From assembly GCA_031370005.1 (NCBI GenBank), contig JANMPT010000025.1, positions 64,001 through 128,000 on the forward strand: a DNA stretch of 64,000 nucleotides. Reading direction: 5' to 3'. Shown piece by piece: positions 1,641 to 11,007 of the stretch; position 1 is the first letter of the stretch; each line of letters starts with the position of its first letter. The translations under genes and the position numbers were made by a program. The DNA comes from Bdellovibrionales bacterium. Lineage in GTDB: Bacteria > Bdellovibrionota > Bdellovibrionia > Bdellovibrionales > Bdellovibrionaceae. Below the pieces are notes generated by a model. It saw nothing but the letters and a program-made list of their open reading frames with translations, searched no databases and was not told where the DNA came from.

Positions 1641-2609
1641 ATGAAAATCGTTTTAGCGAGAGCTTTGTTCAAGCTTCTTTTCTTAGTCGTATTTTTTGTC
1701 TCATGTCAGGTTTTGGCCCAACAAGAGAATCCGCAGGATCCACCGTCTGGATTGAAGGAGGAGCGAAGTTGGGAGCAACGCTTTATTGACAGCAATATTG
1801 CGATTTCAAGGTGGTTTGACGGTATTGCTGAAGGACTTGATTTATTTTTAGTTGGCAAAAGAGTCACGAGCCGACCAAATCAAAGCAATGTTAGGATTGA
1901 AAACAGCACGGTTTCTACCGAAGGACATCAGGTAACAAATGCTATAGGAATAAGTGCGAATCCCAGGCTGCCGAACCTTGAGGAGTATTGGCATTTAAAA
2001 TTTGCGACATATGATGAACGCGAAGAAAGCCGAAAAGCGAAAAATGTTTATTTAAAACAAAGCCCTCGGGAACAAAACTATGGAGCCACTGTTGGAGTCT
2101 TCAAGAAACTTGGAAACATCCGCACTGCGTTTCAGCCTCGTATCGAATTGCAGGACCCGCTCCGAGTGTCTCACTCGCTGAGCTTTGAGAGTGTTGCAAC
2201 TTTAAAAAATTATGAGATCAATCCAAAGCTAGAGTTCTATGCAACTCCAGATAAAGGAGTTGGAGCATTCCAGGCATTGAACTTTAACTTTCAGCTGACT
2301 AAAGTCTTTTCACTAACGCTAGTAAATCAAGGGGACTATGGAGAAAAACTTCATCTTTACCTGGTAACCAATGGTATTTCCATCGGTCAAACGCTGACCC
2401 CGAAGTCGGCTTTTTCTTACAGTTTATTTTTCGGTTCCAATAATCACCCAAGTTATCATTTAGAAAGTTACAACTTTTCAGTTGCTTATAGCCAGGTATT
2501 GTACAAGCGCATTCTCGACTATCAAGTGATTCCCAATTTAGACTTTCAAAATGCAGTCTCATTTAAAGGCGTGGTTGGCATAACTTTCAATATAAATCTG
2601 AATTTCTGA
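1641..2609 (+). CDS. Putative outer-membrane beta-barrel protein
   Basis: Signal peptide ending VLA-QQE, beta-rich sequence, and a C-terminal BAM beta-signal-like FNINLNF. Start uncertain (1608 or 1641). Confidence 0.6.
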   Translation: MKIVLARALFKLLFLVVFFVSCQVLAQQENPQDPPSGLKEERSWEQRFIDSNIAISRWFDGIAEGLDLFLVGKRVTSRPNQSNVRIENSTVSTEGHQVTNAIGISANPRLPNLEEYWHLKFATYDEREESRKAKNVYLKQSPREQNYGATVGVFKKLGNIRTAFQPRIELQDPLRVSHSLSFESVATLKNYEINPKLEFYATPDKGVGAFQALNFNFQLTKVFSLTLVNQGDYGEKLHLYLVTNGISIGQTLTPKSAFSYSLFFGSNNHPSYHLESYNFSVAYSQVLYKRILDYQVIPNLDFQNAVSFKGVVGITFNINLNF

Positions 2610-2662
2610 TTTAAATGTAAAAAAGCTCCTTATAATTAAAGATTTATGATAGCTTTCAACTT

Positions 2663-3154
2663 ATGGAAACTTTAGTTTGTTGTGTCTGCCAAAAACCCAA
2701 GGCCACTCTTGAGTGTGGAATTTGCAAAAGTTCTATCTGTAAGAAGTGTGCGCAATTTCTTGATAGGGATACCTTTTCTTTCCTGCCTGAAGTTCCAGCG
2801 GAATTTGTAACCGGAACTTTTTGCGGCCCATGTTTTGATTTCAAAGTTAGTCCCGAGGCAGAGGTTTACAATCAGACAATGGAAGCGGCCAAAGAAGTTG
2901 CCGTGTTCTTCAATGACCAGGGGAAGGAAACACGCTTGGTGAAGCGTCTTGCTGATCCCGTTCAGGTTTTTGAATGCGCTGACCGCGATGAAACAGTTTT
3001 GCGCCTTGCCTTTTTTGCGGCCCAAGGAAATTACAACGGGATCGTAGATGTTGACGTAAAATCTGAAAAAATTAGAAGCGGATCCTACCAAACACTTCGC
3101 TGGAGAGGTACCGCAATTCCAGCGCATATCGATCCAAAGAAATTGAATAAGTAA
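2663..3154 (+). CDS. Hypothetical protein with an N-terminal multi-CxxC zinc finger and a YbjQ-like C-terminal domain
   Basis: Four CxxC pairs (CCVC, CGIC, CKKC, CGPC). The C-terminal LAFFAAQGNYNGIVDVDV...GTAI resembles the YbjQ/heavy-metal-binding family. Confidence 0.55.
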   Translation: METLVCCVCQKPKATLECGICKSSICKKCAQFLDRDTFSFLPEVPAEFVTGTFCGPCFDFKVSPEAEVYNQTMEAAKEVAVFFNDQGKETRLVKRLADPVQVFECADRDETVLRLAFFAAQGNYNGIVDVDVKSEKIRSGSYQTLRWRGTAIPAHIDPKKLNK

Positions 3155-3186
3155 AGATTGCGACTGTGCCCTATGGGGCATAGCGG

Positions 3187-3429
3187 TCATTCATTCCAAG
3201 TGTAGTAAGCATATCCACAAAGAACAAAGCCAGCTCCCCAGGTACGGAATGCACCACTTACAAAATAGGGATATATCATTAGGATAAGGCCGATAACGAC
3301 GTTGCGGTTATTGGCGTTTCTTTTTCCATGGCGAAAAACCCAAAGGCCAATTGTTCCGAAAACTAAACCAGCGATCAAAGAACTAAGGTCAAATGAAGAT
3401 AAAAGAGGCCCAACGGGAATGTCTTCCAT
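3187..3429 (-). CDS. Small membrane protein (about 3 TM segments)
   Basis: 80 aa with hydrophobic helices and a GLILMIYPYFV motif. Confidence 0.6.
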   Translation of the reverse strand: MEDIPVGPLLSSFDLSSLIAGLVFGTIGLWVFRHGKRNANNRNVVIGLILMIYPYFVSGAFRTWGAGFVLCGYAYYTWNE

Positions 3430-3558
3430 AAAGCTAGCCTACACTCAAAAAAATGCGGCGTCTTGGTTTGTTCACTGAAATGATATTCTTTAAGACCTTG
3501 CAAGAATCCCAGACTAAAGTCTGTTGATGTAAGTCTATTTTATAACGATAAGTAACTA

Positions 3559-4287
3559 ATGAAAGCTTTGAGTCTGTTTTTATTTTTTATCGTTTTTGCT
3601 GCGGAGATTGATCTCGGAGAAATAAAAAATGGTTTTGCATCTAATAAAAAAGACCCCAGAATTCTCAAAATATCTGTGGTCGACAGCGAAGAATCGGCGC
3701 ATCTATTTAACAAATTTTCAGGAGACAAGAGCATTCCTTTTAGATTTCCTTTAGATGGTTGTTATGCCCGGGCTACGGAAATGGTACGGATTGCTGAAAA
3801 GGAAAAAGTTATTATGGGAAAGATTTATATTTCCGGAAGACTTATTGTAAAAACTGATAGTGCAAAGTACCCACTTATTATTTGGGGTTGGCACGTGGCC
3901 CCTTTGGTTTTTGTAAAACAGCAGGATGAAAGCATTAATCTAATGGTTTTTGATCCCTCAATTTTTAAAAAACCTGTGACTATAAAAGAGTGGAAGAAAA
4001 AGATGATGGGCCAAGTTGACGGACTAAGACCCCGAATTGACGAAGTTTATTATGGCTCAAGATACCAATACTTTCCGAGCTCATATGAGGAAAATAAGAC
4101 TAAATGGGCTAAGAAGGATTTGGACAATGCAAAAACCACTTCAGAAAAGTACAGGGCTTTGCAAGACATGGGAGCTCCCGTAGATAATAGCAACGTCCAA
4201 TACGAGAATTTTAACCAGCAAGACTCAACCAAAGAAAAGCAGTCGTATCAAGGCTGGCAAAGACAGCAAAGGCAGGGACAGCAATAA
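3559..4287 (+). CDS. Secreted protein-glutaminase (protein-glutamine deamidase) family enzyme
   Basis: Signal peptide. The motifs IPFRFPLDGCYARA (Cys), WGWHVAP (His) and VFDPS (Asp) match the Cys-His-Asp triad of Chryseobacterium protein-glutaminase. Confidence 0.85.
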   Translation: MKALSLFLFFIVFAAEIDLGEIKNGFASNKKDPRILKISVVDSEESAHLFNKFSGDKSIPFRFPLDGCYARATEMVRIAEKEKVIMGKIYISGRLIVKTDSAKYPLIIWGWHVAPLVFVKQQDESINLMVFDPSIFKKPVTIKEWKKKMMGQVDGLRPRIDEVYYGSRYQYFPSSYEENKTKWAKKDLDNAKTTSEKYRALQDMGAPVDNSNVQYENFNQQDSTKEKQSYQGWQRQQRQGQQ

Positions 4288-4616
4288 TGGAGCGCTTTGG
4301 ACGTATAGTTTTTATTATGCTTACAACGGTGGTGTGCTGCATGAGTGCCCAGGCAGCAAAATTTAAGGGATACCGAAAAGGCGCGAGTGAGGAGACTATG
4401 ACCTTAAAAGAATCATTGGATCGCTTTGAGGAGACTCCGAAGGATTTTCTGATCCTCTTGCAGCGTCATTCTGGGTTCTACCTATTTCCAAAGAAGCCTG
4501 AGTATTCCTCGCAGGTTCGTGAGTTTTTAAATAGTCGTATGAAAAGTAAAAAAACAATTCAACTTCAAATAATTCCGACGACATCTCAAATTCTGAATCT
4601 CAGTGACCTGGAATAA
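4287..4616 (+). CDS. Small secreted protein, probable stand-alone protein-glutaminase pro-domain-like partner
   Basis: TAATG overlap with the glutaminase stop, a signal peptide ending AQA, and a pattern resembling the glutaminase pro-region (see findings). Confidence 0.55.
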   Translation: MERFGRIVFIMLTTVVCCMSAQAAKFKGYRKGASEETMTLKESLDRFEETPKDFLILLQRHSGFYLFPKKPEYSSQVREFLNSRMKSKKTIQLQIIPTTSQILNLSDLE

Positions 4617-4617
4617 G

Positions 4618-6216
4618 CTAAATCTTGCTCCGGTTTTTAAAATTTAAATACTCTTCGTAAGAGATATGATTATCGTAAACGACACCTTGATCGATTTCGA
4701 TAATGCGATTGGCAACAGTTTGGATTAGCTCATGGTCATGGGATGTGAAGATCACGGCCCCCTTGAATCGACTTAAGCCTTCGTTCACGGCGGTGATGCT
4801 TTCAAGGTCTAAGTGGTTCGTTGGTCCATCGAGGATCAAAATATTTGCTCCAGAGAGCATCATTCGCGAGAACATGCAGCGTACTTTTTCGCCTCCCGAA
4901 AGCACACTTGGTTTTTTCATTGCGTCACTGCCACTAAAGAGCATTTTTCCTAGGAAACCGCGTAAGAAAGTTTCGTCTTTTTCTTTAGAGTAAGGGCGAA
5001 GCCAGTCCACCAAGGTTTCCTCAGTGCCTTTGAAGTATTTTGAGTTGTCGGTGGGGAAGTAGTTAATCGAAGTCGTGATGCCCCAAGTACAAGCCCCAGA
5101 GTCTGGGGCTAATTCGCCTGCAAGAATTTCTAATAGTAAGGTTTTTGCTAAGTCGTTACGACCAAGGATGGCAACCTTGTCGCCTTTCTTAAGAGTGAAG
5201 TTTATATTTTTAAGTGGAGTTTCACTCTCCCAATTTTTGGTGATCTTATCAACAGTGACAACGTCACTACCTAGTTCACGGGTGATATCAAAGCCAATGA
5301 AGGGCCGCTTACGTGAAGAGGCCGGCAGCTCATTGAACTCGAGTTTTTCGAGTTGCTTTTGACGAGAAGAGGCCTGGGCAGACTTTGATGCATTGGCGCT
5401 GAATCGGGCGATAAAGGCCTTAAGCTCTTCGGCTTTGTCAGAACTTTTTTTGTTTTGGTCAGAGAGGAGCCTTTGTTTGAGTTCACTGGCCTCTCTCCAG
5501 AAATCATAGTTCCCCGTATAAGTGGTGACCTTGCCGTAATCGATGTCTGCTATATGAGTACAGACTTTATTCAAGAAATGGCGATCATGGGAGATCACAA
5601 TAACTGTGTTTTGAAAGTTCAAAAGAAAGTTTTCAAGCCACTGGATAGCATAAATATCTAAGTGATTCGTTGGCTCATCTAGAAGAAGAATATCAGGCTG
5701 ACCAAAAAGGGCCTGTGCTAAAAGGACCTTGACCTTTTCCCCGCCATTGAGCTCCTTCATCAGTTTACCATGGACGGATTCAGGGATAGCGAGAGCTGCC
5801 AGCATAACAGATGCTTCGGATTCGGCCTCCCAGCCATTTAACTCGGCAAACTCTGTTTCTAGTTCAGAGGCCCTAATGCCATCTTCTTCAGAGAATTCAG
5901 GCTTTGCATAAATTAGATTTTTTTCCTCCATGACGGCGAAAAGGCGTTCGTTTCCCATTAGCACGGTTTTTAAAACAGGGTATTCGTCATAGACATAGTG
6001 GTCTTGCTTTAAAACTGAAAGCCGCAGATCCGGTGAAATAATAACTTCGCCAGTATTGGGTTCGATTTCCTTAGAAAGAACTTTAAGAAAAGTGGTCTTG
6101 CCGGCCCCATTAGCGCCGATCAACCCATAGCAGTTGCCAGGGGTGAATTTAACGTTCACTTCTTCAAAAAGCTTTTTGCTACCAAAACGTAAACTAACAT
6201 TACTTGTACTAATCAC
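4618..6216 (-). CDS. ABC-F family ATPase (YbiT/YkpA-like)
   Basis: Two ABC cassettes (GANGAGKT, LLLDEPTNHLD, LSGGEK, LDGPTNHLD) and no TM segments. Confidence 0.92.
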   Translation of the reverse strand: MISTSNVSLRFGSKKLFEEVNVKFTPGNCYGLIGANGAGKTTFLKVLSKEIEPNTGEVIISPDLRLSVLKQDHYVYDEYPVLKTVLMGNERLFAVMEEKNLIYAKPEFSEEDGIRASELETEFAELNGWEAESEASVMLAALAIPESVHGKLMKELNGGEKVKVLLAQALFGQPDILLLDEPTNHLDIYAIQWLENFLLNFQNTVIVISHDRHFLNKVCTHIADIDYGKVTTYTGNYDFWREASELKQRLLSDQNKKSSDKAEELKAFIARFSANASKSAQASSRQKQLEKLEFNELPASSRKRPFIGFDITRELGSDVVTVDKITKNWESETPLKNINFTLKKGDKVAILGRNDLAKTLLLEILAGELAPDSGACTWGITTSINYFPTDNSKYFKGTEETLVDWLRPYSKEKDETFLRGFLGKMLFSGSDAMKKPSVLSGGEKVRCMFSRMMLSGANILILDGPTNHLDLESITAVNEGLSRFKGAVIFTSHDHELIQTVANRIIEIDQGVVYDNHISYEEYLNFKNRSKI

Positions 6217-8785: not shown

Positions 8786-9074
8786 AGAGCCAAGATGACG
8801 CACTTTATGACTCATAATGGATCTTTTTTCTAAATAGTTTGCAAAAATAATTTTGAATGAGAACAGATTAATCGCACGTCAATATTTTTGTTTCCAAGAA
8901 TTGTAGTCGCCGAAACTCCAAGCTCTGATTCATGCTAAACATTGTGTTTCAAGATAGCTCAACACGGGGCTCTCGCCATTTTAATGTACAAATAGTCGAC
9001 AATTTATCTTAGAAAAATCTAGAAAAAATCTGGTATTTGTTCATTTTACCTCGACCTATTTTGAGACTAGGCAT

Positions 9075-9101
9075 TCAGCTAGCTAGTTTTAAGTCCGATA
9101 A
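9075..9101 (+). promoter_or_regulatory. Putative sigma28 (FliA) promoter of the metallopeptidase gene
   Basis: TCAG-N15-TCCGATAA, ending 7 nt before ATG 9109. Confidence 0.5.
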
Positions 9102-9108
9102 TTATAGT

Positions 9109-11007
9109 ATGGACTTAAGAAGTGGTGCGGCCCAGGTCGGCGGGCGCTTTATTATATTTTCTCTCCTCCTAACGGGTTGCCAAAACTCGTTTGAAGCTCC
9201 TAGCAGTGCTCCTGTTCAAAGTCCAGAGAGTGCATATTGTGGGGCGGCACAGGCAACAACTTATAGCACAGCAACCACAGTTGTTTCTGGTACGGCAACG
9301 TTCAAATATAGACCTCTACAAACAGCAAGCAATTGTGGGCTTTGTGGTGATCCTGTCGCTCTTGGGACTACCTATGCTGAGGTCCATGTTGTTGATGGCT
9401 CAGGCAATATCATACAATGCGGAGAAACGGATCAGCTCGGTGCTTTTAGTTTAGTTGTTCCTCGCGTGGCCGGGTCTTACAAAGTTCAAGTGCTCTCCCG
9501 CTCCTTTACAAACAAGGTTAAAGCAAGTGTGCTCAAAGATATATATTCATCTGCACCGTATGTTGTCGAGTCCGCATTTAGCATAAGTAGTTCGCAAACA
9601 ACGGCTCCAGGGATTTTGGTCACTGCGCCAGCTCGTGCAAGTGAAGGCGATGGCTCAATTCCTGGGGGAGCCTTTAATATTTTAGCGGATATTTTTTGGG
9701 CGAATGAGTTCTTACGTGCCAACACATCTAGCTCCAGCTTCGTTGCAGATAAAGTGGCGGTTTTCTGGAAGGCGGGTTTCAATCCATACTCTTATTTTAA
9801 CGCACCAAATGCCCTTGCCTCTTTTTATGTAAGCTCAGAGGATCGACTCTATATTTTAGGCGGAACAAATAATGACGTTAAAAATTCTGATACCGATCAC
9901 TTTGATGACTCCGTGGTTTTACATGAGTATGGTCATTTCCTCGAGGCACACTATGGCCACTCGGATACTCCGGGTGGCTCTCATAATGGAAACTTTATTA
10001 TTGATCCACGTCTTGCCTGGAGTGAGGGTTGGGCCAATTATTTTCAAGGCGCTGTACAAAATGGTATTCTCTATAATGGTTCTTACTCGGGCCCACGCAA
10101 AGGCACAGGTGGTTTTTCTATTTATGTTGATACCGTTGGCTTTGCAGGCGACTCGGTCGAAGGTACAGGCTCTTCGCATAACATTCAAATACTTCGCAGT
10201 CTAAGTGAATTAAACTCTTCAGCTGTCTATGATAAGTCTGCTACGAATGAAGGCGTTTTCCGTGAGTTCTCTATTTCTCGCACTCTTTTTAAATCAATGG
10301 CGGCGGTAACTGCTGGAGGATTGCCATTTTCTGCAATTTGGGATGCGTTTAAAGAGCTTCGAAATAGTCATTCGCCTGCTTATAAATTTGTGAACTTTGG
10401 TCTCTATAACTCGATACTTCAAACAATTTTAAATGCAAATTATTCAAGCCAAAGCCAAACAACTTGGAACTCCGTACTCGGCGAGGAATACCAAGTGAAG
10501 AACATAGACCTCTATGGTAAGAATCTTGGCGGCACACAAGCTCCCTCTGGTGGAACTCCGGCGTGCCCTGAAATTACCATGTCACCAGTTATGGATGCTA
10601 CTTACGGCTATGATCGCTCCAATCAACTAATGTCCAATGATTTTTATACTTTTTATCACGATGGCACGAGCAAACAAATGGGTTTAAAATCTAGATCCAC
10701 TGGCAACATTATTGATATGAATCTTTATCTCTATGCAGATGCCTACTATTATTCGGAAGAAATTCAAGAGGCCCAGGCCGGCTTTAGCAACTCAACTATG
10801 CTTCGAAAAAGCAAGACTGTGAATACGGCAAGTAGCTCAGAGACCGAGGTCATTGATCTTACGGGGCTTCCTGCCGGTTACTATATGGTGAATGTAAAAG
10901 CCTCAACACTAAATAAATCTTCGTCTTACTTATCAGGTGGAACTGCAAATTATTATTTATACTTTGGCAACAGCTCAACGGTGACAACATGTTTAATACC
11001 AAATTAA
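9109..11007 (+). CDS. Lipoprotein zinc metallopeptidase (gluzincin-type) with a C-terminal beta domain
   Basis: Lipobox LTGC, VVLHEYGHFLE, and downstream AWSEGWA supplying the third-ligand Glu. The C-terminus is PPC-like. Confidence 0.75.
   Translation: MDLRSGAAQVGGRFIIFSLLLTGCQNSFEAPSSAPVQSPESAYCGAAQATTYSTATTVVSGTATFKYRPLQTASNCGLCGDPVALGTTYAEVHVVDGSGNIIQCGETDQLGAFSLVVPRVAGSYKVQVLSRSFTNKVKASVLKDIYSSAPYVVESAFSISSSQTTAPGILVTAPARASEGDGSIPGGAFNILADIFWANEFLRANTSSSSFVADKVAVFWKAGFNPYSYFNAPNALASFYVSSEDRLYILGGTNNDVKNSDTDHFDDSVVLHEYGHFLEAHYGHSDTPGGSHNGNFIIDPRLAWSEGWANYFQGAVQNGILYNGSYSGPRKGTGGFSIYVDTVGFAGDSVEGTGSSHNIQILRSLSELNSSAVYDKSATNEGVFREFSISRTLFKSMAAVTAGGLPFSAIWDAFKELRNSHSPAYKFVNFGLYNSILQTILNANYSSQSQTTWNSVLGEEYQVKNIDLYGKNLGGTQAPSGGTPACPEITMSPVMDATYGYDRSNQLMSNDFYTFYHDGTSKQMGLKSRSTGNIIDMNLYLYADAYYYSEEIQEAQAGFSNSTMLRKSKTVNTASSSETEVIDLTGLPAGYYMVNVKASTLNKSSSYLSGGTANYYLYFGNSSTVTTCLIPN

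Follow-up and report, generated by a model that had tools for sequence, protein, structure and literature searches.

A protein-glutaminase homolog without a pro-region and a freely encoded pro-domain homolog form a conserved two-gene module in Bdellovibrionota

Protein-glutaminase (PG) is known as a zymogen. In the nearest known system, that of Chryseobacterium proteolyticum (EC 3.5.1.44; families PF18626 and NF040782; structures 3a54-3a56 and 2zk9, with 8z3i from Flavobacterium), the enzyme is made as one chain in which a signal of 21 aa and a pro-region of 114 aa precede a mature part of 185 aa (PMC6132073, partial text), and it is activated by proteolysis. A Bdellovibrionales locus presents these parts in another form. 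In the window, by which we mean the whole 64,000-nucleotide stretch of contig JANMPT010000025.1 analysed here, a gene for a PG-like catalytic domain runs directly into a second, small gene, and a sequence-only reading proposed that the first product lacks a pro-region and that the second supplies it as a separate secreted protein. Is this partner a true relative of the PG pro-domain and, if it is, what would such a domain do when it is encoded apart from the enzyme?

The enzyme gene and the gene that overlaps it

Both open reading frames are present on the plus strand at the positions and lengths given in the sequence-only reading, and the DGCYARA, WGWHVAP and VFDPS motifs that it picked out are found in the first product (Table 1). 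PF18626 is the sole domain detected there by a Pfam scan (95.7 bits against a cut-off of 25, residues 49-149), and PDB entries match the catalytic part only (8z3i, E 1.6e-12; 2zk9, E 6e-10), with query residues 56-151 aligning to residues 30-123 of mature PG. The Cys-His-Asp triad is complete, with spacings of 44 and 20 residues versus 41 and 20 in PG (C156-H197-D217; PMC13298967, partial text), and deamidation of protein-bound Gln is the putative activity. The score against NF040782, the Chryseobacterium-type equivalog, is 63.7 bits, under the cut-off of 250, which places the enzyme outside that family; query residues 22-148 cover positions 128-257 of the 321 in the profile and none before 128. 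The absence of a pro-region is thereby borne out: only about 11 residues separate the apparent signal peptide (~15 aa) from the equivalent of the mature-PG N-terminus, and the ~114-aa cis pro-region that is a feature of NF040782 cannot fit in this space. The catalytic Cys lies correspondingly early in the chain, at residue 68, and at residues 60-79 in most of the close clade. The enzyme has a Sec-type signal only, and none of the delivery domains PAAR, VgrG, WXG100 or RHS was found on it by the Pfam scan.

Table 1. Features of the two-gene locus, with window positions, strand and the evidence on which each assignment is based.
Feature	Position	Strand	Basis
Pro-less protein-glutaminase (PG) homolog, 242 aa: signal peptide, catalytic domain and low-complexity Q-rich tail	3559..4287	+	PF18626, PDB matches
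Probable Sec signal peptide of enzyme, ~residues 1-15	3559..3603	+	By eye; homologs with hydrophobic N-termini
Catalytic Cys68 (DGCYARA)	3760..3762	+	Invariant in 34/34 aligned homologs; aligns to PG DGCYARA
Catalytic His112 (WHVAP)	3892..3894	+	At least 90% conserved among 34 aligned homologs
Catalytic Asp132 (FDPS)	3952..3954	+	Invariant in 34 aligned homologs
SD-like AGGGA and TAATG stop/start overlap	4274..4289	+	Sequence
Free-standing PG pro-domain homolog (partner), 109 aa, OB-fold; proposed cognate inhibitor	4287..4616	+	Profile, AF2, Foldseek, VIA
Probable Sec signal peptide of partner, residues 1-23, ending AQA	4287..4355	+	By eye
HSGFY loop; Ser62 in the pro-PG Ala47 column, Tyr65 in that of Tyr50	4467..4481	+	Alignment to 3a56, 3a54

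The two genes share a TAATG at 4285-4289, as had been claimed; the translational coupling that was claimed with it we infer from this overlap and from the SD-like AGGGA at 4274-4278, 8 nt before the partner ATG. Of 43 homologous pairs with a downstream partner, 28 have the stop/start overlap too, with many of the pairs showing GGAG-like elements ahead of it, and an assembly artefact at the junction was rejected because so many homologs have the same overlap. A Gly two to four residues from the enzyme C-terminus, seen in 21 of 34 homologs (alignment A1), matches the GGAG-type ribosome-binding site of an overlapping downstream gene, not a sorting signal. The partner is a real gene under purifying selection, with dN below dS in 9/9 homolog pairs and dN/dS of ~0.04-0.34. 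The signal peptides of both proteins were judged by eye from the sequence; that of the partner, which the earlier reading had also recognized, is probable, and close homologs show A-x-A followed by xKFKG at its end.

Promoter and terminator scans gave results at chance level (4 vs 2.9 and 2 vs 1.2, respectively). Converging on the partner is a gene for an ABC-F-like ATPase, named from motifs (window 4618-6216, minus strand), whose end is 1 nt from the partner stop and leaves no room for a terminator between them. Further to the right (9037-11007, plus strand) is a gene for a 656-aa secreted-looking protein with an HExxH motif and sub-threshold Pfam matches only, possibly an uncharacterised metalloprotease.

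Relationship of the partner to the PG pro-domain

Homology of the partner to the PG pro-domain, which the sequence-only reading had suggested from a strand-FY-helix-strand-hairpin pattern, emerges from a profile, a reciprocal profile and the predicted fold, and we hold it with high confidence. A profile of 47 stand-alone partners ranked residues 32-91 of pro-PG 3a56 first of 177,635 PDB sequences, weakly (E 0.02); the A47Q mutant 3a54 scores below 3a56 because the changed residue lies in the conserved motif. The best-conserved stretch of the partner is the loop equivalent to Ala47-Tyr50 of pro-PG, in which the Ala47 column holds small residues (Ala in 32, Ser in 9, Pro in 4 and Asn in 2 of the 47 partners) and the Tyr65 column holds Tyr in 47/47. 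His61 is found in 38/47; this residue, conserved in Bdellovibrionota partners, is Thr in pro-PG. A 2011 study by Hashizume is said to have placed Ala47 of pro-PG over the active site.

The structure comparison that had been proposed as a check gave the same relationship. With an alignment-based AF2 model of the partner (pLDDT 96), Foldseek places pro-PG in the top three rows (E 3.3e-3, TM 0.66, rmsd 2.1), and VIA ranks 3a54 first over residues 20-93 (Z 9.3, rmsd 2.5, 74 aligned) and also matches residues 35-110 of 8z3i (Z 7.1). Two other OB-fold entries lie within 1 Z of the top VIA match, pertussis toxin chain F scores Z 8.4, and a common OB-fold in a model would not by itself settle homology. 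Matches to AB5-toxin B-subunit, SilF and SSB were taken as shared OB-fold only and rejected as relatives. A single-sequence AF2 model (pLDDT 59), with another topology and no meaningful fold match, was discarded for the alignment-based one.

The reciprocal profile was built from 53 N-terminal segments of full-length PG-like ORFs, picked without the partner model, and it matches 30 of the 47 partners at E<10, 20 of them at E<0.05, and none of the 47 when reversed; the window's own partner is absent from the 30. An hhalign comparison of partners with fused N-terminal pro-regions gives 93.7% (E 1.9e-7), and the partner profile matches the cis pro-region in 30/30 Chryseobacterium-type PGs (E 1.1e-8 to 6.9e-3). 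The partner family scores over threshold with no Pfam or NCBIfam model; one of the NCBIfam families that its members match most often is NF040782, weakly and in 4/47. As a single-sequence query the window's partner has no PDB match and finds only itself among 5.8 billion proteins, with a sub-threshold match to DUF2286 and ESM Atlas matches all <0.9. The five members of the family that turned up in public records go under the names hypothetical or uncharacterized, and one also carries an automatic AMIN label. Bacteriovorax stolpii, Bdellovibrio svalbardensis and a B. bacteriovorus strain are among the cultured bacteria that carry the partner.

Like the PG zymogen, the locus has the same Cys-His-Asp motifs and a partner with the pro-domain fold and an Ala47-equivalent loop, and its products are apparently secreted. 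Unlike the zymogen, it encodes its pro-domain in a gene apart, with a signal peptide of its own and downstream of an enzyme that scores under the NF040782 cut-off.

Paired, fused and solitary copies among relatives

The enzyme loci used were the top 30 from every genome search, together with the best 80 of the 371 in named genomes and the best 80 of the 373 in metagenomes, a sample weighted toward close relatives. Beside the closest enzymes lie small ORFs that look secreted and carry an H-A-A-x-Y motif, and in a held-out test a profile from 17 partners finds partners at 32 of 43 enzymes, with 0 matches in 9,197 reversed ORFs. With the iterated profile, a partner is adjacent or fused in 49 of 60 non-redundant enzymes of at least 135 bits, lying downstream in 42, upstream in 5, on both sides in 1 and fused C-terminally in 1; of the 11 enzymes without an adjacent partner, 2 lie where the contig ends, 1 is the upstream member of a tandem pair and 8 are true local absences. 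Conservation of the neighborhood and co-occurrence with pro-less enzymes, on both of which the sequence-only reading depended, are supported by the locus counts and the held-out test. In a quick tree of the enzymes, from which 2 of 181 rows were dropped as frameshifted, the window enzyme falls in a 23-row clade (SH-aLRT 97) with 16 partners downstream, 2 upstream, 1 fused, 1 truncated and 3 members without; these three are long branches, two with an altered Cys motif. Enzyme and partner trees share subgroups, which would also follow from shared descent alone. The nearest loci and the family labels in the enzyme tree suggest that the window's genome falls in the Pseudobdellovibrionaceae.

Among 96 more distant enzymes, the pro-domain is fused N-terminally in 54, present as a separate gene only in 10 and missing in 32, many of which sit on short contigs. 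Outside Bdellovibrionota, some calls of an upstream 'split' may be frameshifts, as L123 and L200 seem to be, and these calls were not relied on. One permuted single chain, with the catalytic domain first and the pro-domain C-terminal, was also seen (L065:2983-3924, plus strand; also L035). It nests among split loci (SH-aLRT 99, quick tree) and its linker looks like a decayed signal peptide, so that this fusion appears to be secondary; it is one sequence and could be an assembly effect. At a further locus (L251:1495-2505, minus strand) the enzyme gene is frameshifted and the partner intact.

Within the phylum the enzyme clade and the partner are widespread but patchy, with enzyme-clade matches in 65/401 sampled genomes at E<=1e-30 and partner-profile matches in 61/401. 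A role in predation, which had been part of the original proposal, was not borne out by this patchy distribution, the clade being found at the same threshold in 13/53 genomes of the same family and 0/2 of the same genus.

Free pro-domain genes are also found beside enzymes that have a pro-region of their own. In a genus sample, NF040782 is over its cut-off in 43/81 genomes, and at the best 30 Chryseobacterium-type loci from these the gene right behind intact pro-PG is a second, free pro-domain homolog in 30/30 (L254:1117-1428, minus strand, and L264-L292). This copy is ~103 aa long with a lipoprotein-like signal, is recovered at E 2.2e-7 to 1.3e-3 among 659 ORFs, and is annotated as hypothetical in the one Chryseobacterium case noted in public records; its product is a candidate for a natural inhibitor of the food enzyme PG. 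By hhalign the Bdellovibrionota partners score 92.7% to the free versus 74.3% to the cis Chryseobacterium-type copies, from shallow profiles, and a pro-domain tree (95 rows, 72 columns, quick method) groups them clearly with neither. Among 10 Bacteroidota loci (7/301 genomes) a downstream pro-domain gene is present in 5 (L254, L256, L257, L258, L261) and absent in 5. At one distant locus (L122:602-4026, plus strand) a VgrG-like gene is followed by a PAAR-PF18626 gene and then by a pro-domain homolog, apparently two domains in tandem and lacking a signal peptide, an order that makes it a candidate T6SS deamidase effector-immunity pair. A pro-domain homolog is also downstream in L120, L136 and L177.

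Other PF18626 genes stand without the partner. PF18626 matches occur in 178/301 genomes of the class, and a second, common Bdellovibrio-type subfamily (L002, L004-L021, L024-L026, L029, L031), with an N-terminal extension of its own of ~100 aa, has no pro-domain homolog nearby in 23/23 loci. Chloroflexota genes (L105, L111, L115, L117, L137, L141, L164; ~2400-4200, plus strand) combine an N-terminal WXG100-like region, confirmed by Pfam in L117 and L164, with a C-terminal PF18626; most are followed by related genes for a probable lipoprotein of 190-230 aa, of a family other than the partner and likely a second immunity family.

Partner homologs also occur as orphans. Two are in the window's own genome (L223:1459-1824 and L224:1435-1884, both minus strand; E 4.5e-8 and 1.7e-6), with no PG gene within 1.5 kb, and that genome has one PF18626 gene only. 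Four others (L246, L247, L248, L250; 1498-1815, minus strand) occupy a conserved site in same-family genomes, behind a gene that we take to be 3-dehydroquinate-synthase-like. L227 and L237 lie near a TadA/CpaF-like ATPase gene and are closely related to paired partners.

Possible function and history of the pair

The most likely reading of these gene arrangements is that the partner is a co-exported cognate inhibitor, as in SpeB-Spi, rather than simply a displaced pro-region, and we put the probability that the locus is a two-gene enzyme-inhibitor module of this kind at roughly 0.7. Enzyme and partner would be made in matched amounts and both exported by Sec to the periplasm, where the partner would take up the position on the catalytic domain that the pro-domain has in pro-PG, placing the H-[AS]-x-x-Y loop (Ser62 for Ala47) over Cys68 and blocking it. 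The producer's own envelope proteins would thereby be spared deamidation. With no linker to cut, the enzyme would become active once parted from the partner, whether by export past the outer membrane, dilution or partner degradation, and help in folding is a possible second role. The fact that a free copy follows both intact pro-PG genes and the T6SS PAAR-PG gene suggests that the partner is a family-wide self-protection (immunity-like) gene. Inhibition may be partial, given that the pro-PG of Bacteroides helcogenes keeps some activity, 17-fold lower, when uncleaved.

The alternative that the partner is mainly a folding chaperone in trans, with the catalytic domain folding in the periplasm, the partner then shed and any inhibition incidental, is in our view unlikely. 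Propeptides typically aid folding, at least in proteases (PMC3462683, partial text), and stop/start coupling with co-export would suit a stoichiometric chaperone, but enzymes with a pro-region of their own in cis retain a free copy next to them (30/30), and the PF18626 genes with no pro-domain homolog nearby (the 23/23 of one subfamily and those of the Chloroflexota WXG100 type) suggest that the domain can fold unaided. The copies beside cis pro-region enzymes, together with the one in an immunity slot, are the reason for favoring inhibition over folding help. A stable accessory subunit of an active heterodimer, whose OB-fold recruits substrates or tethers the enzyme with no blocking, is improbable: the best-conserved part of the partner is the very loop that matches Ala47-Tyr50, and pro-PG is described as inactive with a shielded pocket (PMC13298967, partial text), even though OB-folds commonly serve for binding, one fusion at the C-terminus was seen (L035/L065) and uncleaved B. 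helcogenes pro-PG is active on gluten. The orphan homologs at conserved sites without PG (L246-L248, L250; L227, L237; L223, L224) would suit a periplasmic function apart from the enzyme, with linkage as inherited synteny, but this too is improbable, since the pair is kept while flanking genes and gene order vary (up, down, both, fused) and since it is found again in loci whose titles name Bacteroidota, Acidobacteriota, Nitrospirota and Alphaproteobacteria.

The proposed inhibitor pair has parallels in other families. In Streptococcus pyogenes the gene for the C10 protease SpeB is transcriptionally coupled to that of Spi, a small 'propeptide analogue' inhibitor that protects the producer and is thought to be cytoplasmic (PMC2873492, PMC3462683; partial texts). 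The window likewise has a papain-fold enzyme and an adjacent, small, overlapping and presumably co-expressed gene homologous to the propeptide of the enzyme family, and a Chryseobacterium-type zymogen with its free pro-domain follows the same logic. The window enzyme differs in belonging to the deamidase family PF18626 and not to C10, and the partner differs from Spi in being apparently exported. SpeB keeps its own propeptide, unlike the window's enzyme, which has none. Enzyme and inhibitor genes are also adjacent in the staphopain-staphostatin and Bacteroides Bfp/Bfi and Btp/Bti systems; Bfi and Bti are described as having leader peptides and as predicted periplasmic or lipoprotein, and inhibitors of the staphostatin/Bfi/Bti type as lipocalin-like and unrelated to propeptides, whereas the window's partner is the pro-domain itself. 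A small gene directly downstream is likewise typical of polymorphic toxin and T6SS effector-immunity pairs, and PF18626 is found C-terminal to PAAR (L122) and WXG100 (L117, L164) as in delivered toxins, such delivery domains being seen only in these distant relatives.

Our literature search, with subscription journals and patents outside its scope, found no account of a free-standing PG pro-domain, of the gene that follows PG or of PG homologs in Bdellovibrionota; a good deal of the work on PG appears in such journals and patents, and the Chryseobacterium downstream gene may have been noticed before. A sentence on PF18626, about Dot/Icm neighborhoods, appears in a classification of papain-like families (PMC10318531), and the terms looked for are absent from a comparative-genomics paper on Bdellovibrionota (PMC11656739).

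As to history, the earlier idea of a split system stands as far as the free downstream pro-domain goes; descent from a split zymogen was not established, given the free copy behind 30/30 intact pro-PG genes. The window would be accounted for just as well by loss of the N-terminal copy, because intact Chryseobacterium-type pro-PG also has a free downstream copy, and the arrangement could come from fission, from such a loss or from an ancestral state. A more speculative scenario, tentative and on balance doubtful, is that the PG pro-region is a domesticated immunity protein. PG domains would then have been interbacterial toxins with an OB-fold immunity gene, from which zymogens arose by fusion; the Bdellovibrionota would keep the unfused state and use the enzyme on envelope proteins of prey or competitors, and orphans would protect against the enzymes of other strains.

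The locus is a real, conserved two-gene module and probably a new form of the theme of an enzyme with a propeptide-analogue inhibitor; it belongs neither to the NF040782 PGs nor to the C10 pairs. With it, a protein family that had no annotation can be recognized as the pro-domain of PG in free form, and for Chryseobacterium-type loci a natural inhibitor of a food enzyme in commercial use is predicted, its gene lying directly after that of the enzyme. Proteolytic activation is a routine step in PG production, and the Bdellovibrionota proteins are PG homologs that may need none. The gene order and homologies described here point to an overlooked enzyme-inhibitor pair, which would be a case where a zymogen pro-domain and an immunity-type gene are the same module and which may offer a handle on the natural role of PG.
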